Source: an uncultured Candidatus Saccharibacteria bacterium (GTDB taxonomy: Bacteria; Patescibacteriota; Minisyncoccia; CAIUEV01; JAHKAQ01). Taken from it: a stretch of DNA of 64,000 bases. Below are positions 7,608-22,670 of the stretch, piece after piece (within the stretch, counting starts at the first letter, position 1; the number at the start of each line of letters is the position of its first letter). The stretch spans positions 71,156-135,155 of the forward strand of contig CAZRBB010000004.1 in assembly GCA_964598205.1 (NCBI GenBank), written 5' to 3'. The notes below the pieces were generated by a model. That model did not search any database and was not told where the DNA came from. It worked only from the letters and a program-made list of their open reading frames with translations. The position numbers and the translations under genes are program-made.

Positions 7608-10600
7608 GTGACAGTAAGAAAACAAAAAAAAGGTGGGATTAATGGTTTCCAACCCTTGGGGGTTTGGGGGCTTTTTATTGTTTTGGGAATCAGCTTGGTG
7701 ATGGTTTTTGGAGGGAATTCGGTTTGGGGAGCGGCGGAGGGGACGGAGGGGACGGAGATAACGGAGGGGACGGTCTGGGGTCGTTTTTGGAGTGGTGTTG
7801 ACCAAGGGGTAACGAGTTTTAAAGAAGGATTTTTAGCAACAACGAATAATCTAAAAAGCTATTTGGGAACAAGTGGACAGTTTATAGCTCGTTTTGGCAA
7901 GGAAAAAAACGAGAAAGAAGCCGAAGAATTGGCCAGCGTTATAGCTAGTCAAAAGATGGAAAAATGGTTGGAATGGTTTAGCAAGAACGGAGAAAGATTG
8001 GAGGAAATTGCTAACGGGGAAAATTTTAACAACCTGTATCTTTCTGGAGCAATAGATGGTCAGAATATTGCCAATAGAAGCTTGAATGGAAATCTTAAAA
8101 TAATTCCTGGATCCATTACCGGATTAGTAATTGCCAACGGTTCTGTTAGTAAAGAAGATATTCTTTGGCGGGGAATTACTTCTGTTAACTTACATGCCAA
8201 TGCGGTAACTACGAGAATTATTAAGGACGGAACTATTATCGGTGCCGATCTTTCAGATGATCTTAGTTTTTCTACTACGGGGACCATCCACGCTGACAAT
8301 ATTAATGGGAATCATTTAATAGTGAAAGATGGTTCAACGCTTTCTGGAGATACGGTTTTTAATGGGGGGGCTTTTTCCCATATGGGAACAACTTTTCTAG
8401 TCAACGAGACTGGAGATGCCACTTTTGATTCTGATGCGGTCACCACTTTTTCTGGGTCAAGATTGGAATTGGTAGCGGACGGTGGCGGGGTAACGATTAC
8501 TTATCCCGATGGTCAAACTTTTCAATTAAAAGATAGAACTACTCGAATTGAAACTTTAGCCAACGGTTCTTTGATTTTAGGAAATGATTCTGACGCTACT
8601 ACCGTGGACGGTTCGGTGATTAATCTTTCTGGGAATACCGTTATTAACGGGACCATTACTGGGAATATTACCGATAACGCTAGTAATGCTTTTGATTTAC
8701 AAGAAGGAACGAATAAGTATCTCAACATTTCTACTGTGGACGGTTCGGAAAAAATTGATTTTGGTAACACAACCCTTAATCCGAGCTATGAATTTTTAGG
8801 AACGGGAGCAACCACTTTGGGCGGTAATTTAACAGTGAATGGAGCGTTAATAGTTGGAGGAGGTACCGCGGTGGCTGGCCATTTTTTACCAGGCTCAAAC
8901 AATGTTTACAATCTGGGTAGTAATACTTACCGCTGGGCTAATCTGTATTTGGGTGGGGAAACATTACATTTAGGAGCTTCGATTACCGACGAAGCGGTTG
9001 TTAGTTATGACACAACTATCAATATTTTAAACATTGGTACTGATGCAACCACCAACGGCGACATTGCTTTTTTTAGTGATGATCTATACCTAGATAAGTC
9101 TAGCGGCAACGTTGGCATTGGGACAACGGACCCGGGGGCGAAGTTGGATGTTGCTGGTGTGGCAACTTTCCGGGGAAACTTGCTTTTTTCCACCGACAAT
9201 ACACTAGACATTGGAGCTAATGGCGCAACACGACCAAGAACAGGGTACTTTGGGACATCGGTAGTCGCACCTAATTTTACCGGCCTGGCTTCCAGCGCTA
9301 CTATTCTTGCCACTGCTCGCGATCTTTATGGCTTTAGTTTTAATGGTTCTGTTGGTACTGTATCGGGAATAAATATTATAGCTAGCAGTTATGGCGGAAC
9401 AGGCAATGGTTTTACGAAATTTACTGGACCGACCACAGCAGAAAAAACTTTTACATTGCCCGATGCCAATGCCATTATTGCCAGAACTGATGCTGGACAA
9501 ACTTTTACTGGAGTCAATATTTTTACTTCCCCAACCTTCACCACTAGCATTGTTCCGACCATAAACGATGGAACAACCATTGGAACAACCACTTTGCAAT
9601 TTTCCGATTTATTCCTCGCTTCGGGAGCAACTATTAACTATGCTAACGGTGATACAACTCTCACTCACTCAACCGGAATTTTGACATTGGGAACAGGAAC
9701 ACTGAAAATCACCACCCCTACCAACACCGCCACCAGCGTGGCGACGATTGACGGAATGCAGACTCTGACGAACAAGACATTGACTGCATCTAACAATACT
9801 TTAGGTGGAGTGACTATGACATTGGGAACTGATGCTACTGGTGATATATATTATCGCAATGTTTCTGGATATTTGACTAGATTAGGAATTGGAACTTCTA
9901 ATCAGATTCTCCATGGTGGAACTACTCCAAGTTATTCTGCTATTTCTCTGACTGGAGATATTACTGGAATTTTACCACTAGCCAATGGTGGCACCAATAA
10001 AAATATAACGGCTTCATCTGGAGCAATCATATTCTCTGATACTGATTCAATGGAACTTACTCTAGTTGGGTCTTCTGGGCAAATTTTGGTTTCTCAAGGA
10101 GCAGGTACGCCTATCTGGTCAACTCCCACCTATCCTTCTGCTTCCGGATCTGCCGGGAAAATTATTCGTTCCAATGGCGCTAACAATATCTATTCAACAG
10201 CCGCTTTTGCCGATACCTACACCGCCTCAAATCTTCTATATTCAAACGGCGACAACACCGTGCAGGGATTGGCTACGGCCAATAACGGCGTTCTCATTAC
10301 CGGTGTCACCGGTGTTCCTTCTATTTCTTCTACTATTCCAGTGGTTACACAACAAAATATTACCAATGTAAATTCAGCCTTGGTTACAGGACTTCTTCAA
10401 ATTACCACCACGACTGGCGCGCTCACGAGTGTTACCACTTCGGCTGGAATAGACGCTCTCATTTCCAACAATACCGGTTCGGGGCTTTTGGTTTTCAACG
10501 ACGGTCCGACTTTTATTGCCCCGACTCTCGGTGTGGCTACCGCCACTTCAATTAACGGACTTACGATCAATACCACCACCGGCACGCTAGCAATTTCCAA

Positions 10601-13600
10601 TTTAAAAACGCTCACCGCTTCCGATTCCACAACTCTTGCCACCAATGCGATTACTCTCGCTGGTGGGGAAGTCATAACTTTTTCACCAACTAACGCTTTG
10701 TCACTTTTGACGACTGGAGCAACAAGTGTGACTTTGCCAACATCTGGAACATTGATCAGTACCGACCAAACAGTGGGGCAAACTATTGGATTAACTGGAT
10801 CAAGATTAACAAAACTTTGGGCAACCAACATTGAATCAACCAATGCTCCGACAGTTTTAGGTTCAGCAGTTTATTATACTGGTGGTACGGATGTTTCTTT
10901 GGCTGATGGTGGTACCAACGCTTCCCTTACTGCCAATAATGGAGGAATTTTTTATTCCACGGGAACAGCTGGAGCAATTTTAGCAGGAACATCGACAGCC
11001 AATCAAATTTTGCTTTCTGGTTCATTAACAACACCAGTGTGGTCCACCGCCACCTATCCGGTTACGACGATGGCTAATCAATTATTATATTCTTCAGCGC
11101 TTAACACGGTTACTGGTCTAACTACTGCCAACAGTGGTGTTTTGGTTACCAACGCCACTGGAAATCCTTCTTTCTTGGGCTCTCTGACTAATGGACAATT
11201 AGTCGTTGGTTCTACTGGAGCCATTCCAGTTTTAGCCACTTTGACCGGTACAGATAATCAAATCGTGGTGACCAATGGCGCTGGCACAATTACTCTTTCC
11301 ACCTCTCAAAGTATTAATACCACTTCCACTCCGCAATTCGCTAGAATAGGCTTGGGGGTTTCCGCTGACACTACGAACATTCTCACTGCTACATCTGTTT
11401 CTACTACCGATCTTTCAAAGACGCTAAATATCTCTCATACTGGAGCCATCACTGGCACGGGATACGCCGGATACTTTTCCAAAACTGGAGCATCAACTAC
11501 TAATGTTGGGCTTTATACGATTGCCACTGGGGCAACTAATAACTATGCGTTGCAAATAGATTCTGCCGTAGCTGGAGCGAATAATTATACAATCTATGCT
11601 AATGGCACGGCACAAAGTTATTTTGCGGGCAACGTCGGCATCGGGACGACAGCCCCTTCTTCATTATTAAGTGTTGGCGGTGCAGGTTCCAGTTCTTATA
11701 GTATTTCTGGGATAGGTTCTCAAAGTGGAATTTATGGCTCTGCAAGTGCTGGTTATACTGGAGTGTATGGTCTTTCTACATCTGGTGCTGGTATCTCTGG
11801 CTCTTCCACGAGTGGAGTGGGTGGTTATTTTACTTCTTCTGTTGGTTACGCACTTATTACAGGAAACGGCAACGTCGGCATCGGGACGACGGCACCAGAA
11901 TCAAAACTGCATGTTTCAGCAGATGGTGCTGTTCAAATTTTCATGGGCGATCTTTATAGTGATCTATCATATAATACGCCAGAATTCTCAGGCAGGAGAG
12001 CCAGAGGAACTCAATCATTGCCATCCGCAGTATTGGCGGGTGATACGCTAATGCTTGTTGGGGCTAGAGGATATATGGATACTGGGGGGTTTAGCGCAAA
12101 TAAAGCCGTCATACACATGTATGCTGCGGAAAATTTCACTTCTACTACAAACGGAACTTATATCACTTTTTCAACAACACCTATCGGATCAACATCAAGA
12201 GCCGTAAGGATGACAATAGGGGATGCTGGCAACGTCGGCATCGGGACGACGAGTCCGGGGGCGAAGTTAAATATAAAAAGTAATAATGATGCTTCTGCTT
12301 TAAAACTTACATCATCTCTTGGTGGTACTATGATGGATCTTTACGAACTATCAGATGGAAGAATTCAATTCAATCTTTATGATGGGAGCGGAATTACCAA
12401 GGTACGATTAGATGGAAATGCAGATAATTACATAACCGGTGGCAACGTGGGAATCGGGACGACGGGACCTTCGGCCCTCTTGCATGTTGGATCCGGCGGT
12501 ACTCCCGGCTACGCAACTACGGGTGACGCTTATTTCCAAAATGATGTTGAAATTGACGGAACACTTTATACCGCAGGATTATCGGTACTTGGCAGCATTA
12601 TTCCTGCAACGGACGACACTTACGATCTTGGTTCATCGTCTTACCGCTGGAGAGATCTTTATCTTGGTCCAACATCATTACACCTAGTTTCAACGGTTGG
12701 GGAAACAACAACGGCCAGAGATTGGAAGTTGTCTATTCAGGAAACAGACGGCACAAGCGAAGGCAATTTGCGTATTATGGAAGGCGCAACGGAAATAATG
12801 AACATACAACCCGGCGGCAACGTCGGCATCGGGACGACGGGACCGGGGGCAAAACTGAATGTAGTAGGTGGTTCCGCTGGGACAAATACAGGTATTTTTA
12901 GAATCGAAAACAATACTAATGCTTCTGCTAACACAGGTGCATCAGTTGAGTTTTACAGTTACGATAACACGCCAGCTCAGGTAGAAATGGGACGAATTGG
13001 CACATTGGTAACAACTGGAACTGCCGGAGCGGCTTCATCTGATTTAGCTTTCTCGGCACGCAATAGTGGAACATTGACGGAATGGATGAGAATAAAAGGT
13101 AGCGGCAACGTCGGCATCGGGACGACGGGACCAGCGACAAAATTACAAATAGCTGGTACGGGTTCGACAAATGGACTTTCTTTTGGTGATGCGGCAGATG
13201 TGATTTTATATCGAAATTCAAGTACGCAACTTAGAATGAATAGTGATTTGCGGACAAGTGGTTCTAGCGGCTTGACTGTGGATGGGCCTGCTTTTTCTCT
13301 TGGTGGATTTAACACGCTTTATAACGCCGCAAGTGGTTTGCAATTTAAAGCGAATGCTACTTCGCAGATGCAACTATTTGCATCAGGTGGTTTAGCACTT
13401 GGTAGTACTTATTGGTCAACTGACCCAGGGGCAGGGAATTTAACAATACAAGGCAACGTCGGCATCGGGACGACGGCACCGGGGGCAGCCTTGGATGTGA
13501 TTGGAACAGGGATATTTCAATATGCGGCCTTGGAAAATGAAGGTGAATTTCTAAGAATATCGAGAACCTCTCAGACAACTCGATATAGTTCTTTATGGGC

Positions 13601-16600
13601 GAGACAGTCAGTTACAAAAGCGAATAATTATATTGGATTTAGAGTGTATGATGGTAATTCGACAGATTATGCTCCTGTAGAAATGATGAGAATAACAGGA
13701 AGTGGCAACGTCGGCATCGGGACGACGAATCCGACTGCGAAATTGGAAATAGGGGGAGATAATAATGGACTAAAAATATCTGGAGCAACATATGTTAGTG
13801 CTGAATTATTAGATGGTGGTAGCAATGATTCAGGGTACTTATCTCTTTATCGTGCTGGAGTTAAGGCTTTTTCTATTGGTGCTAATGACACATATTTCAA
13901 TTACGGCAACGTCGGCATCGGGACGACGGGACCGGCACAGAAACTGCATGTGTTCGGTGCGACGCCTCAAGTGGAAATTGACTCGTCATCTGGCACTAAC
14001 CCTTCATTGTTCTTAACAACGACAAATGACACGACTCAAGGAATAAAGTTTAGTTATGACCAAGGGGCTGGGGACGGGTATATTGATAATGTTTGGAACA
14101 ATGCTGCTGGAGATTTATTTTTTAGACTACGCACTCTCGGAACTCCAGTGGATGTCTTGTCGTTAAAAGCGAGCGGCAACGTCGGCATCGGGACGACGGC
14201 ACCGGTAAGCAAATTTCATCTATATGATAGCACGGGCTCCGGGTTAAGTATTGATACGGGAAATGGTTATGCGAATTTGTATTTCTTGGACGGTGGAGTT
14301 GAAAGATGGAGGTTTAGAAACGATGGTGCGACCGATGACTTTCACTTAATGGAAGATGCATCGGACATACGTCTTACTGTTCAAGAAGGCGGCAACGTCG
14401 GCATCGGGACGACGAGTCCACTGTCAAGTTTCTATGTAGGTAGTACTACTCCAACTAGTCTTTCCTACGCCCTTGGTAATTGGAACTCATACAAGGCAGC
14501 CATTGTAGATACATTCAATTATGCATCGGTTGATGATGAACATACTTCGTTTTTATCAGACCTGACCGTGAATTCGACCGTAAATAGTAGTGAACAGATG
14601 GCAGCGATTGCAGCATCAATAACAGTTAGTACGGCAAGTACGGCAGATACTGGGTCACTTAGGACTATATGGTCAAATTTGCAACATGATGGTACTGGAA
14701 CAGTTGCTGCCGCTCGGTTGTTTAATGGTGAGTTGGCAAATAAATCCACTGGCACAATGACTAAGGCGGATGGACTTGGTGTAGCTTTTAGAAATACAGG
14801 AGGGGGAATAATCAGTGATTTGAGAGGTGTTAACATTATTGACCTAGTAAACACTAGTGGGACAATCACTAATACATATGGGATATATACTGGCGACTTG
14901 TCATTAGGTACTCAAACGAATATGCCATTTTCTTTTTATGCCTCTGACTCTGATACATACAATTATTTTGCGGGCAACGTCGGCATCGGGACGACGGCAC
15001 CGGTAAGCAAATTTCATCTATATGATAGCACGGGCTCCGGGTTAAGTATTGATACGGGAAATGGTTATGCGAATTTGTATTTCTTGGACGGTGGAGTTGA
15101 AAGATGGAGGTTTAGAAACGATGGTGCGACCGATGACTTTCACTTAATGGAAGATGCATCGGACATACGTCTTACTGTTCAAGAAGGCGGCAACGTCGGC
15201 ATCGGGACGACTGGGCCATTGGTAAAGTTGCATATAACTACTGATGATGTTAATGGTAATGGCATACGAATTCAAAATGATAATGCTCTTGGCACTTGGA
15301 AATATGGAACGCTCGCTATGATGGGGCAAACTGGAAACAGCATTGTTGATTGGCCAAATGCTTTAGTAATTGAAGGTGCTGGCAATGGGGGAACTGTTAT
15401 TAGTAGTGCAGCAGGGGATATTAAATTTAATCCTGGTAGAATACAAGGAATGATAGTAAAGCAAACAACAGGCAACGTCGGCATTGGGACGACCGCGCCG
15501 GGATTTAGATTAGATGTTCCAGCGGTTTCTGCTAGCAACTATGATGTTGCAAAAATAGGCGGATTTGTAATTGCAAGAGCAGGGACTGATGTTAGTAATT
15601 TACTTATAACTGGTGCAAGTTGGGCTGGTGGAAGTACATTAACAGCTACCGCAACTACTTATGCCAGTTATCAACAAACTAGCGGAAATCATTATTTTTA
15701 TACTGCTACGGGACAAACCGTGGGAAATGCAGTTACTACTGTTATTCCAATGACAATAGTGGGTAATGGAGCAGTGGCCAATACTTTGTATCTAACTGCG
15801 GGCAACGTCGGCATCGGGACGACGAGTCCGACTCAAGCATTACAAATTACAGGAAGTCAATTTCAACAGCTGTCTTTACAAACAACTGGTGCTTATACAA
15901 CAAAAACTTACTTTGCGAATTATGCTGCAATAGGGAACTTGAACTCGTATTGGTCTATGAATAGAAATATTGGGACTGGTGTATTTGATAATATTGAACT
16001 GCCAGCGGCGGCAATCGCAATGAATGGCTCTACGGGAAATTCATCTATTCAATTTTATACTGCAGCCGCAAATAACACCGCACCATCTGTGCGTATGACA
16101 ATCGACAATAGTGGCAACGTCGGCATCGGGACGACGAGTCCGGGTGATAAGTTGAGTGTAGATGGCACAACTTATGGCACAACTATATCTGTCACAGGTA
16201 GAAGTGCATCATGGCCTGGCAATGCGACGGATTTGTCAAAACTTAATTTTAATGGATTAGTAGGTGCTTCTGGTGGAACACTGGCTTCTATAGCAACGAG
16301 GTTTGGGAATTCTGGTTCTGATTTTAGTAGCCAACTTCTTTTTTCAACAACTGACGCTTCCTTTGTTTTACAGGAAAGGATGAGAATCAATAACCTCGGC
16401 AACGTCGGCATCGGGACGACAGCACCGGGGGCATTATTGCACGTCGGACCAAACTCAGTTGTGTACCAACCAACCGTTGGAACTAAACAGCTAATTCTCT
16501 CTGGTGCTGGAAATACAAACGCAATTGATAATGGGACAATGATGATTTTTAGTGGTGGGTATAATTCAACGCTTGCACAAAATGCGACTTATGGTGCAAT

Positions 16601-18164
16601 TGCTGGTTTAAAAGAAAATGGGACCGACAATATTGCGTCTGGTTATTTAGGGTTTTACACCGGTCGTACTGGAGATGCCAATGCCTTGGAAAAAATGAGA
16701 ATTACAAGCACTGGCAACGTCGGCATCGGGACGACGGGACCGGTAGAGGCTTTGGATGTTTTGGGAAAAATAAAAGCAAGCAGTTCGGTTCAAGCAAATG
16801 GCGTAGCAATAGGTGGATTAAACGGCCTTTATTATAGTTCTTCCACAAGGGGTAAATATGGTTTTGGTTCTGTGACAGCGCTAGGAGCTTATCCACTCGA
16901 TTTATCTTCTGGTGATGTTACGACGTATACTGATGGATATATCAAATTCAGTACCGCCGGAACAGAAGCGATGCGAATTCAATCAAGTGGCAACGTCGGC
17001 ATCGGGACGACGGGACCAGGTGGTAGACTTCATATCGCAGATGGAATTACGGGCAATGACGCGACATATCGGGGAAAGTTAATTATTGAGAGCGGGCAAA
17101 CAGATAATGCCAGTAATGGATTGGAATTTAAAGCCAGCGCAGGGGCGAGCGGGTATGGTTATCGTTTGGCAACCGTTTATCCTACTTCTGGCATTGACCT
17201 TCGTTTTCAATCCAGACAAAATTCAGCTACTTGGTCTGATGTAATGACAATAAATACAGTCGGCAACGTCGGCATCGGGACGACGAATCCGGGGTATAAG
17301 TTGCAAGTTAGACCGGCTACTGATGTCAATCTTGGTTTTGGAAGTAATGCTGTTGGTGGTTTGCTAAATGTGGCTAATGATGCCGCATCAGTTGTTGATT
17401 TGACAACTAATGCGTGGGAATATCACTTTCAATCAAATGGAAACGAAAGGGTTACAATTCTCAACGGCGGCAACGTCGGCATCGGGACGACGGGGCCGGG
17501 GGCACGGTTAAATGTAGTTGATGTAAATTATGGATTTAATAATGTTGGAAATCTATTTATTCGCACTTCTGACGCACAGGCGGCAGACATTGGTGGAATG
17601 ATTGGACTGGGAGGTATTGGAAATGACGCAGGAACGGGAATTACTTCCTTTGCGACAATAGCAGGAAGAAAAGAAAATGGAACAACTTCAAATTACAGTG
17701 GATATTTGCAATTCTCAACATCTAATCCAGGAAGTACAAAGAATGAATGGATGCGAATCACAAGCACCGGCAACGTCGGCATCGGGACGACGGCACCCTC
17801 CCAAAAACTTCATGTTGAAGGTCACTGTCTTACCGGCGACACCCTAATCGCTGTTCGTCGTAAAAAAAGACGAAATTCTGAAAACGGAGAAAATGAAATT
17901 GACCCAGATGACCTAGACTTTTCTTTATCCGATTTTGCGTCTTCTAGCGATCAAGAAACAGAAGACTGTATCCTAGTACCAATTTGCAACATTCTCCCCG
18001 GAGACGAGGTTTTATCGCTCAATGAGGAGACAAATCGCACCGAGTATCACCCCATAAATGGCCTCCTAGACATGGGCATTCAAGAAATTTATCAAATTCG
18101 CACTAAGTCTGGACGGGTAATTCGGACTACCGGAAATCATCCGTATCTGGTAAAAATGAACTGA
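7608..18164 (+). CDS. Giant (3518 aa) tail-fibre-like repeat surface protein = N-extein fused to the N-terminal half of an intein
   Basis: N-terminal signal/TM anchor. Tail-fibre-type motifs (ILPLANGGTN...). About 23 modules each starting GNVGIGTT(A/S/G/N)P..KL.V. Last 112 aa are Hint N-terminal blocks A (CLTGDTLI) and B (TGNHPYL). Confidence 0.85.
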   Translation: MTVRKQKKGGINGFQPLGVWGLFIVLGISLVMVFGGNSVWGAAEGTEGTEITEGTVWGRFWSGVDQGVTSFKEGFLATTNNLKSYLGTSGQFIARFGKEKNEKEAEELASVIASQKMEKWLEWFSKNGERLEEIANGENFNNLYLSGAIDGQNIANRSLNGNLKIIPGSITGLVIANGSVSKEDILWRGITSVNLHANAVTTRIIKDGTIIGADLSDDLSFSTTGTIHADNINGNHLIVKDGSTLSGDTVFNGGAFSHMGTTFLVNETGDATFDSDAVTTFSGSRLELVADGGGVTITYPDGQTFQLKDRTTRIETLANGSLILGNDSDATTVDGSVINLSGNTVINGTITGNITDNASNAFDLQEGTNKYLNISTVDGSEKIDFGNTTLNPSYEFLGTGATTLGGNLTVNGALIVGGGTAVAGHFLPGSNNVYNLGSNTYRWANLYLGGETLHLGASITDEAVVSYDTTINILNIGTDATTNGDIAFFSDDLYLDKSSGNVGIGTTDPGAKLDVAGVATFRGNLLFSTDNTLDIGANGATRPRTGYFGTSVVAPNFTGLASSATILATARDLYGFSFNGSVGTVSGINIIASSYGGTGNGFTKFTGPTTAEKTFTLPDANAIIARTDAGQTFTGVNIFTSPTFTTSIVPTINDGTTIGTTTLQFSDLFLASGATINYANGDTTLTHSTGILTLGTGTLKITTPTNTATSVATIDGMQTLTNKTLTASNNTLGGVTMTLGTDATGDIYYRNVSGYLTRLGIGTSNQILHGGTTPSYSAISLTGDITGILPLANGGTNKNITASSGAIIFSDTDSMELTLVGSSGQILVSQGAGTPIWSTPTYPSASGSAGKIIRSNGANNIYSTAAFADTYTASNLLYSNGDNTVQGLATANNGVLITGVTGVPSISSTIPVVTQQNITNVNSALVTGLLQITTTTGALTSVTTSAGIDALISNNTGSGLLVFNDGPTFIAPTLGVATATSINGLTINTTTGTLAISNLKTLTASDSTTLATNAITLAGGEVITFSPTNALSLLTTGATSVTLPTSGTLISTDQTVGQTIGLTGSRLTKLWATNIESTNAPTVLGSAVYYTGGTDVSLADGGTNASLTANNGGIFYSTGTAGAILAGTSTANQILLSGSLTTPVWSTATYPVTTMANQLLYSSALNTVTGLTTANSGVLVTNATGNPSFLGSLTNGQLVVGSTGAIPVLATLTGTDNQIVVTNGAGTITLSTSQSINTTSTPQFARIGLGVSADTTNILTATSVSTTDLSKTLNISHTGAITGTGYAGYFSKTGASTTNVGLYTIATGATNNYALQIDSAVAGANNYTIYANGTAQSYFAGNVGIGTTAPSSLLSVGGAGSSSYSISGIGSQSGIYGSASAGYTGVYGLSTSGAGISGSSTSGVGGYFTSSVGYALITGNGNVGIGTTAPESKLHVSADGAVQIFMGDLYSDLSYNTPEFSGRRARGTQSLPSAVLAGDTLMLVGARGYMDTGGFSANKAVIHMYAAENFTSTTNGTYITFSTTPIGSTSRAVRMTIGDAGNVGIGTTSPGAKLNIKSNNDASALKLTSSLGGTMMDLYELSDGRIQFNLYDGSGITKVRLDGNADNYITGGNVGIGTTGPSALLHVGSGGTPGYATTGDAYFQNDVEIDGTLYTAGLSVLGSIIPATDDTYDLGSSSYRWRDLYLGPTSLHLVSTVGETTTARDWKLSIQETDGTSEGNLRIMEGATEIMNIQPGGNVGIGTTGPGAKLNVVGGSAGTNTGIFRIENNTNASANTGASVEFYSYDNTPAQVEMGRIGTLVTTGTAGAASSDLAFSARNSGTLTEWMRIKGSGNVGIGTTGPATKLQIAGTGSTNGLSFGDAADVILYRNSSTQLRMNSDLRTSGSSGLTVDGPAFSLGGFNTLYNAASGLQFKANATSQMQLFASGGLALGSTYWSTDPGAGNLTIQGNVGIGTTAPGAALDVIGTGIFQYAALENEGEFLRISRTSQTTRYSSLWARQSVTKANNYIGFRVYDGNSTDYAPVEMMRITGSGNVGIGTTNPTAKLEIGGDNNGLKISGATYVSAELLDGGSNDSGYLSLYRAGVKAFSIGANDTYFNYGNVGIGTTGPAQKLHVFGATPQVEIDSSSGTNPSLFLTTTNDTTQGIKFSYDQGAGDGYIDNVWNNAAGDLFFRLRTLGTPVDVLSLKASGNVGIGTTAPVSKFHLYDSTGSGLSIDTGNGYANLYFLDGGVERWRFRNDGATDDFHLMEDASDIRLTVQEGGNVGIGTTSPLSSFYVGSTTPTSLSYALGNWNSYKAAIVDTFNYASVDDEHTSFLSDLTVNSTVNSSEQMAAIAASITVSTASTADTGSLRTIWSNLQHDGTGTVAAARLFNGELANKSTGTMTKADGLGVAFRNTGGGIISDLRGVNIIDLVNTSGTITNTYGIYTGDLSLGTQTNMPFSFYASDSDTYNYFAGNVGIGTTAPVSKFHLYDSTGSGLSIDTGNGYANLYFLDGGVERWRFRNDGATDDFHLMEDASDIRLTVQEGGNVGIGTTGPLVKLHITTDDVNGNGIRIQNDNALGTWKYGTLAMMGQTGNSIVDWPNALVIEGAGNGGTVISSAAGDIKFNPGRIQGMIVKQTTGNVGIGTTAPGFRLDVPAVSASNYDVAKIGGFVIARAGTDVSNLLITGASWAGGSTLTATATTYASYQQTSGNHYFYTATGQTVGNAVTTVIPMTIVGNGAVANTLYLTAGNVGIGTTSPTQALQITGSQFQQLSLQTTGAYTTKTYFANYAAIGNLNSYWSMNRNIGTGVFDNIELPAAAIAMNGSTGNSSIQFYTAAANNTAPSVRMTIDNSGNVGIGTTSPGDKLSVDGTTYGTTISVTGRSASWPGNATDLSKLNFNGLVGASGGTLASIATRFGNSGSDFSSQLLFSTTDASFVLQERMRINNLGNVGIGTTAPGALLHVGPNSVVYQPTVGTKQLILSGAGNTNAIDNGTMMIFSGGYNSTLAQNATYGAIAGLKENGTDNIASGYLGFYTGRTGDANALEKMRITSTGNVGIGTTGPVEALDVLGKIKASSSVQANGVAIGGLNGLYYSSSTRGKYGFGSVTALGAYPLDLSSGDVTTYTDGYIKFSTAGTEAMRIQSSGNVGIGTTGPGGRLHIADGITGNDATYRGKLIIESGQTDNASNGLEFKASAGASGYGYRLATVYPTSGIDLRFQSRQNSATWSDVMTINTVGNVGIGTTNPGYKLQVRPATDVNLGFGSNAVGGLLNVANDAASVVDLTTNAWEYHFQSNGNERVTILNGGNVGIGTTGPGARLNVVDVNYGFNNVGNLFIRTSDAQAADIGGMIGLGGIGNDAGTGITSFATIAGRKENGTTSNYSGYLQFSTSNPGSTKNEWMRITSTGNVGIGTTAPSQKLHVEGHCLTGDTLIAVRRKKRRNSENGENEIDPDDLDFSLSDFASSSDQETEDCILVPICNILPGDEVLSLNEETNRTEYHPINGLLDMGIQEIYQIRTKSGRVIRTTGNHPYLVKMN
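17826..18161 (+). other. Split-intein N-terminal fragment (IntN, about 112 aa) at the C-terminus of the giant protein
   Basis: Cys1 in CLTGDTLIAV (block A). TGNHPYLV (block B, conserved T..H). Followed directly by a stop codon. No intein C-terminal blocks in this ORF. Confidence 0.8.
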
Positions 18165-18193
18165 ACTTAAAAATTTTTAACTAAGTTTTCTTT

Positions 18194-19753
18194 ATGTTTG
18201 GCGGTGGATTTTTGAAAAATTTTAGGGGCACTTGTATCACGCTTGCCAAACGAGTAGTCGATTTATTTCAAAGTCGTGATACCGAACCCTTGCCGATTCG
18301 TGATACGAAACCAGTCCTTAAAAAAATACGGAAAACCAAAAATTCCCAAAATTCGGTCAAAATTTTAGCCAAAGAAAAAATTCCCATGGGCGTGGAAATT
18401 TTAGAACCGGAACCTAGGCCCAATCTTTTGGAAATTTTTTGTCCGTATTGCTCTGGCAAAAATTTTGTAAAACGCGGTTTACGGCAAAAGAAAAAAGAAA
18501 AAGTTCAACTTTATCTTTGCCGTGATTGTCGGCGGTCGTTTACTCCCGGAGCGGTGAAAGGTCGGCATTATCCAATGGAGGTGATTCTTAACGCCATTAG
18601 TTTATATAACCTGGGGTACAGTTTGGAAAAGGCGGGAAAGATGGCATCTAAAATAGAGGGATTCAATAGGGAAGGAAAAAAAGAGCAGGGGGCGGGACTC
18701 AAAGGGACAAGGTTCCAGAGGGGACTGCTTACAACATCGGGCAACTTCGGGAGCGGGATGATCGGCAGCGGGACGGTGCTAAGTTGGGTGAACCGCTACC
18801 GTCATCTCTGTGCTTTTTCCCGAATGCGGGAATTTGCCATAAAAATGCTACCGCCGAATGAAATGATTTCTTCGGCTACCCTAGCGCATCGGCAACTCTA
18901 CCGATTCCGGCACCATCGTGCCAAAACAATCTTGATTATTAAAGAAGATTTTAAGAACAGTCCCTTTTGGCCATTAAAAGAATTTTTGGATTTAGTGCCG
19001 GTGGAATGTCCACATCAATATTTTCAAGAAGGTTTGCGGGCGTCAGAAGCGCCGCTTACTTTTTCCAAAACGGAAATGATTGTGCGGGGCAAAAATAATT
19101 TTGCCAACAAAATGGCTAAGTTTGCGCTAGAATCGGCCACTAAAGCCAAAGATCGCCACGATGTTTTACAGCGATTTATGTTGGCCAACGATTCGGTAAC
19201 AGTAGCTACAGAAGTGCCGATTTATCTTCGTCGGGAAGATTTAGCACACATGCAAACACAGTTGGGGTTTGAGCTGTATAAAAAGAGGATTCGTTCTAGA
19301 AAGAAGGAAGACAAGGCCCAAGGGGGGGCGAGGCCCAAGGGGGACTACTTACAACATCGGGCAACTTCGGGAGCGGGAAGATCGGGCAGCGGGACGGCAT
19401 TGGAACTTTTTCCCCTAGAAGAAATACCCAAATTAATTACCGGTCACATTGATTTTGTGCAGATTAGAAACGGAATGATCCATATTTTGGATTACAAGCC
19501 AAAAGCCGCCAAAGAAAGACCGATTGAACAATTAACCATTTACGCGTTGGCGCTTTCCCGCTTAACTGGCTTACGGGTGTATCATTTTAAGTGCGCTTGG
19601 TTCGACGAAAAAGATTATTTTGAATTTTTCCCACTGCATGTGGTTTCCAAGCCGGGAAAGAGGCGTTATCGGCGGAAAATTCGGACGATTGAAGGGACTT
19701 ATAAATTAAACGACGATCCGTTAAAGGTGGCGAATATTAAGGCTCAAGGCTAA
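18194..19753 (+). CDS. Putative free-standing homing-type nuclease: N-terminal C4 zinc ribbon (IS1/IS1595-transposase-like) plus C-terminal PD-(D/E)xK RecB/Cas4-family nuclease motifs
   Basis: CPYCSGKNF...x17...CRDCRRSF zinc ribbon. C-terminal GHIDFV (motif II), ILDYKPK (D/ExK), QLTIYALAL (QxxxY). Lies between the two intein halves. Contains out-of-frame 56-bp direct repeats and a G7 tract, so the ORF may be composite or decaying. Confidence 0.5.
   Translation: MFGGGFLKNFRGTCITLAKRVVDLFQSRDTEPLPIRDTKPVLKKIRKTKNSQNSVKILAKEKIPMGVEILEPEPRPNLLEIFCPYCSGKNFVKRGLRQKKKEKVQLYLCRDCRRSFTPGAVKGRHYPMEVILNAISLYNLGYSLEKAGKMASKIEGFNREGKKEQGAGLKGTRFQRGLLTTSGNFGSGMIGSGTVLSWVNRYRHLCAFSRMREFAIKMLPPNEMISSATLAHRQLYRFRHHRAKTILIIKEDFKNSPFWPLKEFLDLVPVECPHQYFQEGLRASEAPLTFSKTEMIVRGKNNFANKMAKFALESATKAKDRHDVLQRFMLANDSVTVATEVPIYLRREDLAHMQTQLGFELYKKRIRSRKKEDKAQGGARPKGDYLQHRATSGAGRSGSGTALELFPLEEIPKLITGHIDFVQIRNGMIHILDYKPKAAKERPIEQLTIYALALSRLTGLRVYHFKCAWFDEKDYFEFFPLHVVSKPGKRRYRRKIRTIEGTYKLNDDPLKVANIKAQG
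18721..18776. repeat. 56-bp direct repeat, copy 1 (inside the nuclease ORF)
   Basis: gggactgcttacaacatcgggcaacttcgggagcgggatgatcggcagcgggacgg. Near-identical copy at 19341-19397. The two copies are read in different frames, so the repeat is at DNA level. Confidence 0.8.
19341..19397. repeat. 56-bp direct repeat, copy 2 (one extra G), preceded by a G7 homopolymer at 19322-19328
   Basis: gggactacttacaacatcgggcaacttcgggagcgggaagatcgggcagcgggacgg. Confidence 0.8.
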
Positions 19754-19931
19754 ATTCAACCAACGCTTTTTTGATCTCCTCTTTTTTGGTAAAAAGATTA
19801 AAATCCAAAGATTGCCGGTGCCCAATGTGAAGAGCAATGGCGGTACCGCCAGCCAAACCAAAATCTCGGGAAAAATCACTAATTAATGGCAAGATTTTTA
19901 CTTGTTCGGAAGTTAAAATCTCAGTGTGCAT
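19737..19931 (-). pseudogene. N-terminal remnant of an AbiEii-family (DUF1814) nucleotidyltransferase toxin gene, truncated
   Basis: 64-aa ORF with LAGGTAIALHIGHRQSLDFNLF, resembling the AbiEii N-terminal GGTAL...R.S.DiDf motif. A stop follows and no downstream continuation exists in any frame of 60 aa or more. Overlaps the 3' end of the nuclease ORF. Confidence 0.35.
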
Positions 19932-20317
19932 GTTTGTTAAAATAAAGAGTGAAATAATTTTTTATTTCTGGTCGGTAATTGGTTCTTTTTTTTGATTTTT
20001 TGGTTTGGTTTTTAAAGATAGTCGCTATTTTTTGGAGGCCAACCACGGTCAAAAGTTTTTAAAAATCCTGCCAATCGCCGTAATTCAAAACGGTTTCTGT
20101 GATTGATTCAACAGACAAAACGGAAGGGTCTTTAACTGACCAAAAAAGCATTTTTCTTTGGACAGCAAATTGTTTCAGCTCTTTATCCATGATAGAATAA
20201 TAGCATATTTGGTTGGAAAAATCATTGGTTTGTGATTAAAGTTTTGTTTTTAATATCTTCTTAAATTATTTTGGTAATATTAAGTTAAGATTTTTGGTGA
20301 GGAGATGATAAAAATCA

Positions 20318-20767
20318 ATGTATCGCAATTATGTAAAAAGAGCGGTTAAGAATTTTACCGATTTAGATGTTTACCAAAAGCTTTTGGAAGGAAGTGTTTT
20401 TGTGGCAAAAGTGGTGGTGCCGGCTTTTTGGGAAAAACAAACGGAGACAAAAAAAGACAAAACGGCGGAGCTGATTATAGAAAAGCTAACAGTGCATACT
20501 CTTTATCTTCCAGAGCTGATTGCCAAGGCTCATTCTGTTCGTTTTGGAGCGGGGGAGCAATGTTTGGCATTTTTAGAAGAAGCAATGCTTGGCTGTAATT
20601 TAGCGGTGGTCTATTTGGAACAAACGCGGGATATTTGCGAAACTGGGTTAGAAACCGAACAATTTTCCGAACAGATTAAAAAATATTTTCAGGTAAGACA
20701 AAAAGTGTTAAACTTGCAAAGAGTTTGGAAGAAATTTATAGAAATCAAAAAACAAGAACAAAACTAA
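20318..20767 (+). CDS. Four-helix-bundle protein (TIGR02436 / 23S-rRNA-IVS-protein-like; Avd-like fold)
   Basis: 149 aa, all-helical. N-terminal FTDLDVYQK...resembles the F.DL.VWQKA signature of this family. Stop lies 4 nt before the IntC gene start. Confidence 0.4.
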   Translation: MYRNYVKRAVKNFTDLDVYQKLLEGSVFVAKVVVPAFWEKQTETKKDKTAELIIEKLTVHTLYLPELIAKAHSVRFGAGEQCLAFLEEAMLGCNLAVVYLEQTRDICETGLETEQFSEQIKKYFQVRQKVLNLQRVWKKFIEIKKQEQN

Positions 20768-20771
20768 AATT

Positions 20772-21059
20772 ATGTTTGGTTTTTTAAAGAAAGTTGCTAA
20801 AAAATGGCTCAAGGTTTCCCAGTTAAAAGTGGGAGCAAAAATTGCTGTGCCCAGAGCAGCGGCAATGGCTGGTTATGGTGGACTGGTTGCTAATGATTCC
20901 TTACTAGAAGAAGGCGAAGGGGATTATATGTGGGACGAAATTACCGAAATTAAAAAAGTTGGTCGAGAAAGAGTTTACGACATTGAAGTAGACGGAACGC
21001 ATAATTTTATTGCGGGGAATATTAATAATAAATTATTCGGCGGAATTTTTGCTCACAAC
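20772..21059 (+). other. IntC (C-terminal intein half; 96 aa from the first ATG, 44 aa if translation starts at 20928)
   Basis: Terminal His-Asn (AHN) followed by +1 Thr. Block F VYDIEVDGTHNFIA. Confidence 0.75.
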
Positions 21060-22670
21060 ACCTATGTCACCGGCAACGTCGGCATCGGGACGACGACACC
21101 GACCTACCGTCTTCAACTCCCCAATGTAGGCGATGCTACCGGGCAGGGCCAAGCCAATGCTTGGGTAGCATATTCAGATAGAAGTTTAAAAGAAGAGGTT
21201 GATCCAATCACTAATGCTCTAAACAATGTTCTTCTCTTACAAGGAGTAGACTTTACTTGGAAGGGTCAAGGAATTAGAAGCTCTGGCTTTATTGCTCAAG
21301 ATGTAGAAGAGGTTATTCCTAGTCTAGTATCCACAGACATTAACGGAATTAAGTCTTTAGACTATGGAAGATTTACTCCTTACCTAGTAGAAGCAATCAA
21401 AACCCAACAACTAAACATTACTACTAACACGAGCCGTCTTGATCTCCTAGATCAAAAGATAATGGAAGAGGCGAGTGGTTCTTTAATCCTTAATGCTACT
21501 GGCAATAGTATCCAAGCCAAAGATCTCTTAGACGCTACCTTACAAGGTGTAGCTACTAAAGTTAAATCCGGCACTATTTCCGACACTGACTTTATTTTAC
21601 CGATCAATGGTTTAATGGCAGTAGACTCAGCTAATGGAAGGGTCTATTTCCGTTACGACAATGATTGGCATTATGTTAATCAAACAGGAGGCTTTCAGAT
21701 TCCTAATTACGAAACCGCTCCGTACGAAAAGCTATCTCAAAACTCTAAGATTAAAGAAAATGAAGCTCTTCCTTTTGAATCAAGTAACTATCCTCACTAC
21801 ATAACAGAAAAGTTAACTCCCGGAGAGCTTCTGATTCCTTTTGTAGATGAATACCTTCCAGACGGAGCTGTCCATGGTCTGTATGCTAGATTCGAAGATG
21901 TTAAAGAAAAAATGTTTACTCAAGAAAAGAGCCAGTTAGTAGATCTAGCCCTTAAAACCGCAGAGAACATAGAAACTATTAAAGAGTTTAAAGAATCAGT
22001 AGATAAAAACCTAGCCGTAATTTCTTCTAACTTTGAATCATTAGATAACAACATTGACCGAAACGAAAAGAATGTTGAAAGCTTAGAAACCAGAACAGAA
22101 GCTACAGAAGCTAAAAATAATGATCTATCTTCCCGAGTTTCTGTCTTAGAGTTTTCTCTTTCTGAATCCCAACTAGCCGGAGAGCGCTTAGAGTTCCTTA
22201 CCCAAATCTTAAACCCAGCTGAAGACGGAAGCCTGACTATTTACAATGATCTGAATTTAGAAGGCAGATTGAGCGCCGAGGAAGTGGTGCTTAACAAGAT
22301 CACTATTAAGACCGATTCCGAAGAAACCCGCACGGTAGGGCAGGCGGTGATTGTTGGATTAGCTAAAGATGAAGATGCTGATGGCAAAGACGACAACACC
22401 GGAGCCGATGGTAAGAGCGTGATTATAAAAACCAGAATGGTTACGGAAAGTTCCAAGATTTTTTTAACCTTTGAAAACAATCCTCAATCATTGTATTGGG
22501 CAGAAAAAGTAACCAATGAATCTGGTGCTCTTATTGGTTTTAAGATTCTTCTAAACAGTCCGGCGTCGGCGGATATTAAAGTTTCTTGGTGGATTCTAGA
22601 AGAAGACGATCCGGCCAAGCAAACAACAAGCACTCCGGTCATTCCTTCTTCCCAATCAGAAGCACTTTAA
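20772..22670 (+). CDS. Split-intein C-terminal fragment (IntC) fused to C-extein: final GNVGIGTT repeat, peptidase-S74 intramolecular chaperone domain, coiled coil and C-terminal beta domain
   Basis: Blocks F/G: ERVYDIEVDGTHNFIAGN ... GIFAHN | T. The C-extein starts TYVTGNVGIGTTTP using the same 23-mer as the giant gene. SDRSLKEEV...GFIAQDVEEVIPSLV...LDYGRFTPYLVEAIKTQQ matches the S74 (CIMCD) consensus. Internal starts at M32 and M53 (20928) would give an IntC of 44 aa. Confidence 0.8.
   Translation: MFGFLKKVAKKWLKVSQLKVGAKIAVPRAAAMAGYGGLVANDSLLEEGEGDYMWDEITEIKKVGRERVYDIEVDGTHNFIAGNINNKLFGGIFAHNTYVTGNVGIGTTTPTYRLQLPNVGDATGQGQANAWVAYSDRSLKEEVDPITNALNNVLLLQGVDFTWKGQGIRSSGFIAQDVEEVIPSLVSTDINGIKSLDYGRFTPYLVEAIKTQQLNITTNTSRLDLLDQKIMEEASGSLILNATGNSIQAKDLLDATLQGVATKVKSGTISDTDFILPINGLMAVDSANGRVYFRYDNDWHYVNQTGGFQIPNYETAPYEKLSQNSKIKENEALPFESSNYPHYITEKLTPGELLIPFVDEYLPDGAVHGLYARFEDVKEKMFTQEKSQLVDLALKTAENIETIKEFKESVDKNLAVISSNFESLDNNIDRNEKNVESLETRTEATEAKNNDLSSRVSVLEFSLSESQLAGERLEFLTQILNPAEDGSLTIYNDLNLEGRLSAEEVVLNKITIKTDSEETRTVGQAVIVGLAKDEDADGKDDNTGADGKSVIIKTRMVTESSKIFLTFENNPQSLYWAEKVTNESGALIGFKILLNSPASADIKVSWWILEEDDPAKQTTSTPVIPSSQSEAL
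21174..21420 (+). other. Peptidase S74 / C-terminal intramolecular chaperone autoproteolytic domain
   Basis: YSDRSLKEEVDPITNALNNVLLLQGVDFTWK...SGFIAQDVEEVIPSLVSTDINGIKSLDYGRFTPYLVEAIKTQQLN. The Ser-Lys dyad motif SD(R/K)xLK is conserved. Confidence 0.8.

Follow-up and report, generated by a model that had tools for sequence, protein, structure and literature searches.

An out-of-frame repeat pair in a Patescibacteria nuclease gene as probable partial copies of a GC-rich palindromic insertion element

The window analysed here is a stretch of 64,000 nucleotides (nt) from the genome of an uncultured Candidatus Saccharibacteria bacterium (contig CAZRBB010000004.1, positions 71,156 to 135,155). 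An open reading frame (ORF) of 519 amino acids (aa) at 18194..19753 on the plus strand, which is also the strand of the repeat copies, the intein halves, the partner gene and the word array placed below, encodes a zinc ribbon, a conserved middle domain and a RecB/Cas4-like PD-(D/E)XK nuclease core. A preliminary description of this DNA had pointed out two near-identical segments inside this one ORF that are translated in different frames, and we could reproduce their coordinates, their frames and the restoration of the frame by a single extra G. We propose that the two segments are probably partial copies of a GC-rich palindromic insertion element that lies in the linkers of many proteins of Patescibacteria, or candidate phyla radiation (CPR) bacteria.

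The first repeat copy occupies 18715..18776 (core 18720-18776) and is translated as ...QRGLLTTSGNFGSGMIGSGT. The second occupies 19335..19397 (core 19340-19397), where the same DNA is read in another frame as KGDYLQHRATSGAGRSGSGT. A repeat search of the window gave a unit of 57-58 nt, or 62-63 nt including the lead-in, with 18715-18765 matching 19335-19385 (51 nt, 92% identity, spacing 620) and 18764-18776 matching 19385-19397 (13 nt, 100% identity, spacing 621). The two copies differ by two substitutions and one indel, the extra G of copy 2, and are 95% identical over the 57-nt core. In the frame of the ORF, the translation is QRGLLTTSGNFGSGMIGSGTV for copy 1 and KGDYLQHRATSGAGRSGSGTA for copy 2; past the extra G, which lies at GATCGGGCAG and puts the downstream frame back, both read GSGT. 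A T-to-A change in copy 2 abolishes a TGA stop in the frame of that copy. We computed the reversion of two of the three differences between the copies, and undoing either the T-to-A change or the extra G of copy 2 closed the ORF prematurely, with a stop at aa 396 or 408 and thus ahead of the catalytic core. A 32-nt core pattern with up to three mismatches matched only at copies 1 and 2 in the 64 kb, against 0.00 matches expected from dinucleotide shuffles, and both copies form local peaks of GC content (0.59-0.63, compared with 0.39 for the window). Contig L001 (Joint Genome Institute sample 3300044951), which is possibly not independent of the source of the window, matches the window at 100% identity across 1544 nt, a stretch that takes in both copies and the run of seven G (G7) discussed below.

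The 519-aa ORF belongs to a nuclease family of more than 3243 members. Its IS1/InsA-type zinc ribbon spans aa 83-117 (NCBIfam, E 2.7e-6) and its PD-(D/E)XK core aa 413-458 (Pfam PDDEXK_1, E 8.3e-5), with D420, D433, K435, Q446 and Y450 as nuclease core residues. An AlphaFold2 model (mean predicted local distance difference test (pLDDT) 74, predicted template modelling score (pTM) 0.73) gave weak matches in the PDB to the nuclease domains of AddA, RecB, MGME1 and Cas4, the best with an E value of 0.017. The pLDDT fell below 50 only at aa 1-77, 169-185 and 376-398, the latter two overlapping the regions of the inserts. Alignments of 25, 86 and 121 family sequences placed the two copies in two hypervariable linkers, the main insertion hotspots of the family, after query aa 158, behind the zinc-ribbon/helical N-domain, and after query aa 370, ahead of the PD-(D/E)XK core. 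Short homologues of about 404-414 aa (P0074, P0075, P0080, P0105, P0110) have 9-18 and 0 residues at the two hotspots, and other nuclease homologues carry inserts of up to about 150 aa there.

These alignments also bear on several earlier suggestions. The 620 nt between the copies encode the conserved middle domain, which has many invariant residues and is found in all aligned homologues, insert-free ones included. The repeats therefore do not bracket an insertion, and the proposal that they are att-like recombination sites, or a duplication, around an inserted 620-bp segment was rejected. All invariant family residues are kept in the 519-aa ORF, which, together with the ORF-preserving T-to-A and extra-G differences, points to a maintained ORF that is neither decaying nor composite, as had been considered; the confident fold outside the inserts and the N-terminal 77 residues argues in the same direction.

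Inserts at these linkers in homologues are translated as peptides of the form ..RPAPEV.SSSESKGQKGTKG..SD..DSQS.GN[IVF]G[SI]GT. RPAPEV is encoded by CGTCCCGCTCCCGAAGTT; read as its reverse complement, AACTTCGGGAGCGGGACG, this DNA encodes NFGSGT and is the core of the repeat in the window; the peptide SRSRSC is the same arm read in another frame. Full-length elements are about 85-116 nt long and consist of terminal inverted arms of 19-20 nt (CGTCCCGCTSCCGAAGTTG ... CAAyWTCGGSAGYGGGACG) around a G-rich spacer with GGGAC motifs. The arms paired in 85% of cells, compared with 33-48% when the partner was slid. RNAalifold and pair counting on the full-length elements showed no covariation beyond composition. 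Neither the window region nor the full-length elements of the related locus L002 gave a credible Rfam match, and single-sequence folds were no better than shuffles (z +0.1 to +0.8), so that a structured RNA was rejected. Pairing arms with neither covariation nor an Rfam match support inverted DNA arms and not a selected RNA fold.

To follow the element beyond the nuclease family, we scanned metagenomes for both arms separated by a gap of 58-88 nt, a search that is unbiased as to locus. This revealed 78 full-length elements on 75 contigs. Fifteen of the 78 lie in nuclease genes or in the partner gene that follows them, and 9 more are near such a nuclease cassette. The other 54 are on cassette-free contigs, 40 of them inside ORFs of at least 120 aa. 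Ten host ORFs were scanned with Pfam, and nine belonged to known families, with the insert outside the matched domains and, in nine of the ten hosts, between two of them; in the tenth it is N-terminal to the first matched domain. The hosts include SecA (twice, before the SEC-C motif), GyrB/ParE, RecG, a class I tRNA synthetase, DnaG, RNase J, a Mur ligase and PolX. Elements inside ORFs are read in all three frames and in either orientation: the coding strand is the G-rich one in 42 of them and the C-rich one in 13. Together with the two frames seen in the window, this bears out the earlier view that the repetition is one of DNA and not a protein repeat. The preliminary description had named as a refutation the finding of the same peptides as conserved protein motifs in homologous nucleases, and this was borne out by half: peptides of the GN[IVF]G[SI]GT type do occur at the same linkers of homologues, but these are DNA-level copies of the element and no conserved motif of the protein.

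Sites without the element were found in orthologues of several hosts, namely the short nuclease homologues, the partner gene of the window and relatives of the ParE/GyrB host. The partner gene of L002 holds the same element, and the copy in the window is empty at the corresponding site. The GyrB/ParE host is labelled Candidatus Zambryskibacteria by its source, and relatives of about 80% identity lack the whole segment, although this contrast of filled and empty sites is coarse because most relatives vary in that linker. A search of viral contigs for full-length elements gave 0 matches. Elements of the same locus are up to 0.82-0.87 identical (range 0.63-0.87), while those of different loci have a mean identity of 0.66 and a maximum of 0.77. 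The searchable literature gave no relevant description of in-frame palindromes in CPR bacteria, of the peptide or of the DNA word.

We then asked how the two copies of the window relate to this family with an nhmmer profile of 103 positions, built from 72 unique metagenomic elements, none of them from the window. The profile matched 18695-18761 (E 1.2e-6, profile positions 40-102) and 19314-19378 (E 1.3e-5, profile positions 40-99). Homology to the element extends over 18695..18777 at linker 1, comprising the right arm and the GGGAC-bearing spacer, and over 19314..19397 at linker 2; the left arm is absent from both. Both copies thus correspond to the right 60% of an element, that is, spacer plus right arm. 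They end in two tandem right-arm units (18743-18760 and 18758-18775 in copy 1), an arrangement also seen in other elements, and the 13-nt sequence AGGCCCAAGGGGG recurs 17 nt apart at linker 2. The identity of the pair in the window (0.83 overall, 0.95 in the core) fits the pattern within loci. A MITE-like family spread through the window was rejected, no further copies being present in the 64 kb.

Element homology, location in linkers and differences that preserve the ORF are thus all observed for the two segments, and we infer that the ORF is kept open by selection and that the segments are translated and themselves functionless. The favoured and probable explanation runs as follows. Elements are scattered through Patescibacteria genomes, mostly inside ORFs, where they survive solely in permissive linkers between domains, in whichever frame stays open. 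The insert would then be translated as a disordered linker, as with the Rickettsia palindromic elements (RPEs) compared below, and the nuclease family has built up elements at two linkers. Both copies of the window have lost the left arm; the two are more alike than elements of different genomes, which fits amplification or gene conversion within the lineage.

Other kinds of DNA also occupy these linkers. In some homologues linker 1 contains antisense tRNA-like DNA (P0033, P0038, P0040; 583-667 on the minus strand of L036 and 60-130 on the minus strand of L015). ARAGORN called a tRNA-Ile within the nuclease ORF of L036, and the N-terminal region of L015 has a partial match to transfer-messenger RNA (34 bits, E 2e-11). 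A second type of GC-rich hairpin insert, reading VETQFIAS...DAINRVST or CRDEALPRL...SASWRT, was seen at the same linkers of nuclease and partner genes of other genomes (L003 5680-6303, L005 at about 2500-2650, P0004, P0013, P0024). At the 3' end of the nuclease ORF of the window, a 64-aa ORF on the minus strand (19737-19931) overlaps it and is a gene call on contig L001 too; its sequence (..LAGGTAIALHIGHRQSLDFNLF..) may resemble the start of a nucleotidyltransferase-type protein.

The nuclease gene is enclosed by a split intein, with one half on each side. Upstream, a giant ORF of 3518 aa (7608-18164) encodes a tail-fibre-like repeat protein and ends in the N-terminal half (17826..18164, CLTGDTLIAV...TGNHPYLVKMN). 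Downstream, the C-terminal half (20772..21059, ...VYDIEVDGTHNFIAGN...IFAHN|T) starts a 632-aa ORF (20772-22670), which continues the repeats of the giant protein and carries a Peptidase_S74 domain. Pfam Intein_splicing matches both halves (E 3.4e-6 and 7.3e-7), and the intein-less junction of the giant protein reads ...KLHVEGH|TYVTGNVGIGTT.... Between the nuclease gene and the C-intein ORF lies the partner gene, which encodes a four-helix-bundle-like protein of 149 aa (20318..20767). It gave only weak NCBIfam matches, to TIGR02436 'four helix bundle protein' and PRK12275, and a profile search against PDB sequences found nothing. We collected 80 genome loci, mostly labelled as Patescibacteria groups, which make 82 non-redundant loci with the window and two other contigs. 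Both intein halves flank the cassette in 29 of these 82, and 80 of 85 locus entries have a partner homologue after the nuclease gene. Partner homologues in L002 and L003 carry insert elements, which the copy in the window lacks.

The giant gene lies about 2 kb upstream of genes for elongation factors EF-G and EF-Tu and ribosomal proteins L4 and L2 (24643-31694), neighbours that mark the locus as chromosomal and not a phage or plasmid fragment. Within it, two stretches about 800 nt apart (14175-14411 and 14973-15209) contain copies of the 23-nt word described below with identical flanks and encode the peptide ...GNVGIGTTAPVSKFHLYDSTGSGLSIDTGNGYANLYFLDGGVERWRFRNDGATDDFHLMEDASDIRLTVQEGGNVGIGTT twice; from its sequence this pair looks like a recent internal duplication. 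For the two repeat copies of the nuclease ORF, a diversity-generating retroelement was considered because the partner looks like a four-helix bundle (Avd-like), and was rejected: the copies differ by just two substitutions, and a scan of ten large neighbouring ORFs, reaching about 20 kb in each direction, showed no reverse transcriptase. The scanned ORFs comprise an AcrB-type pump, an HlyD-type protein, EF-G, EF-Tu, ribosomal proteins, a peptidase, a lipase-like protein and two ORFs with no Pfam match.

The giant gene contains a 23-nt word, GGCAACGTCGGCATCGGGACGAC, which encodes GNVGIGTT and is arrayed over 11628..21094 in 21 exact and 2 near copies. GNVGIGT is encoded 24 times in the whole giant gene, 21 of them with the exact word, and the flanks diverge freely. 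The right arm of the element shares 18 of 22 bases with the word in the same frame, and some arms are exactly CGTCGGCATCGGGACG. The word was followed across the window, L002, L003, L005-L084 and the viral loci L085-L204. Of 58 Patescibacteria loci, 57 use the same 21-mer, which encodes 204 of the 289 GNVGIGT motifs there, and more than 120 IMG/VR contigs of 29-65% GC contain the 23-mer but no nuclease. No mention of the word was found in the searchable literature. In 11 of 23 loci the first Cys codon of the intein lies exactly 34 nt past a word (L014, L022, L023, L026, L028, L030, L039, L048, L066, L079 and, at 17826, the window), and in the window 12 nt separate the intein from the next word. 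Across loci, the GNxGIG copy at this 12-nt distance behind the intein is often degenerate in its DNA, unlike other copies. Many public contigs start at or within a few dozen bases of a word (locus positions 1-60 in L005, L007, L030, L046, L061, L078 and others), which suggests that assemblies break inside the word arrays of giant genes.

Several observations weigh against the explanation by scattered elements surviving in permissive linkers. No target-site duplication was found at 72 unique element boundaries. No transposase or other mobilising enzyme and no related autonomous element was seen in the loci examined, with no genome-wide search having been made, and with no covariation found, the hairpin itself is not shown to be selected. 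The 64-kb window holds only two copies, both without the left arm, so dispersal in this genome is not shown. Moreover, the right arm often lies within a few codons of the same position across homologues and could reflect one ancient insertion instead of several independent events. The small number of copies also fits a purely intragenic event, in which one segment was duplicated or gene-converted to the other linker with no mobile family involved. The 95% identity of the core, far above the identity of elements between loci, and the lack of further copies in the window would be expected from such an event. However, a profile made from other genes and organisms matches both copies, including the upstream parts of the spacer in which they differ from each other, and the same element occupies both linkers in many homologues as well as the partner gene. 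Gene conversion may well have homogenised the 57-nt core, yet this leaves the origin of the element unexplained, and we regard the purely intragenic account as very unlikely.

The preliminary description had also read the G7 homopolymer at 19322..19328 as a plausible slippage or phase-variation site. Such a switch would turn the nuclease off through a frameshift and truncation before the catalytic core. G7 is rare in this DNA of 39% GC, the only other run in the 64 kb being at 8364-8370 in the giant gene, and a computed change to G6 or G8 ended the protein ahead of the PD-(D/E)XK core, at aa 408 or 420. The tract, however, lies in the spacer of copy 2 and aligns with the element consensus CCaaGGGGACgcg, which makes it a local, lineage-specific form of the GGGGAC motif; the consensus itself has no run of seven G there. 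The sole other public contig, L001, carries an identical G7, and a run of seven is short for efficient slippage as known from contingency loci. No variation in the length of the tract was seen, and we consider a phase-variation switch there very unlikely. The resemblance between arms and word raises the further question of a link to the nuclease. The arms are 37 times denser in the nuclease/four-helix-bundle cassette than in the 10-kb flanks of nuclease loci (38 of 43 arm matches in 17% of the sequence, p = 3e-24), which also counts against our explanation: tolerance of permissive linkers does not obviously predict this enrichment, and it leaves room for a functional link. The word-like arms might be cis sites for the nuclease, which may bind them, or they might act as decoys, as patches of homology or as termini of mini-elements mobilised by it, and the cassette might enter giant genes by recognising the invariant word GGCAACGTCGGCATCGGGACGAC. 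The in-frame match of arm and word and the enrichment speak for this, as do the position of the nuclease gene a short way downstream of a same-strand word array in nearly all loci with enough upstream sequence, and the fixed distances between intein and word (34 nt in those 11 of 23 loci, 12 nt in the window). Against it, most full-length metagenomic elements are in unrelated housekeeping genes on cassette-free contigs, the word occurs in the nuclease-free IMG/VR contigs, and the same linkers of homologues hold unrelated inserts, including repetitive extragenic palindromic (REP)-like hairpins and tRNA-like pieces, which favours general tolerance. We consider such a cis function unlikely. In its most specific form, which we hold to be similarly doubtful, the arms and the 23-nt word would be one recognition sequence, cut or bound by the zinc-ribbon PD-(D/E)XK nuclease with its four-helix-bundle partner; the split-intein cassette would home into any word-bearing giant or tail-fibre-like gene across phyla, and word-flanked mini-elements would be mobilised in trans.

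Partial copies of a linker-borne palindromic element, our preferred reading of the two segments, find their closest comparison in the RPEs (Ogata et al. 2000, 2002), which PMC10969869 describes as short palindromic repeats lying in frame in unrelated and often essential genes, with no known transposase. The Patescibacteria element shares with them the in-frame palindromic insertion, the addition of a peptide at permissive sites, the lack of a known transposase and the occurrence in small, reduced genomes. It differs in belonging to another phylum, in its length of about 90-115 nt compared with about 150 nt, in being GC-rich and G-rich in AT-rich genomes, and in being read in three frames, whereas each RPE family has one conserved peptide. 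In addition, its arms are similar to the conserved coding word of the giant tail-fibre-like genes, an intein-associated nuclease cassette is strongly enriched in it, and the copies in the window are half elements without the left arm. Like MITEs (transposable elements of the miniature inverted-repeat type) and REP sequences, it is small, has terminal inverted repeats of about 19-20 nt, has no coding capacity of its own and occurs in many copies, but it lacks a target-site duplication at the 72 boundaries, lies mostly inside ORFs and has no parent insertion sequence or transposase identified in the loci examined.

The arrangement of the cassette recalls the fractured genes described by Dassa et al. 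(2009, PMC2677866), in which a split intein is combined with a free-standing endonuclease, mainly in phages and in enzymes of DNA synthesis and repair. As there, the upstream ORF closes with the N-intein, the downstream ORF opens with the C-intein, and the gene for a nuclease sits in the gap in the same orientation. In contrast, the window's host gene encodes a giant repeat protein of surface or tail-fibre-like type, the nuclease is not Vsr-related but RecB/Cas4-like, a PD-(D/E)XK enzyme that carries an IS1-type zinc ribbon, the cassette has a second conserved gene, and the hosts are Patescibacteria chromosomes. Palindromic amphipathic repeat coding elements (PARCELs), which we compared by description, are likewise coding repeats with dyad symmetry at the DNA level, found across unrelated microbes and linked to mobile elements; they are, however, tandem 25-residue repeats of surface proteins and not single linker inserts. 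The G7 tract shares with contingency loci a run of G inside an ORF whose change in length would truncate the product, but it is short, does not belong to the consensus of the element and has the same length in L001.

In-frame protein-coding palindromes have so far been treated as a peculiarity of Rickettsia. Our analysis shows that an element family comparable to RPEs is present in Patescibacteria, including in the essential genes of SecA, GyrB/ParE, DnaG, RecG and RNase J. For annotation, this offers a simple explanation for CPR proteins with unusual inserts of low complexity or with spurious 'frameshifted repeats', and for protein evolution it means that such elements contribute linker sequence. 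For the biology of mobile elements, the family is of interest through arms that resemble a word invariant across phyla in giant tail-fibre-like genes and through its enrichment in the nuclease cassette. If the arms and the word were indeed one recognition sequence, this would account for the frozen synonymous sites of the word, for the cassette always sitting beside word arrays and for the many copies of the arms in its own genes.

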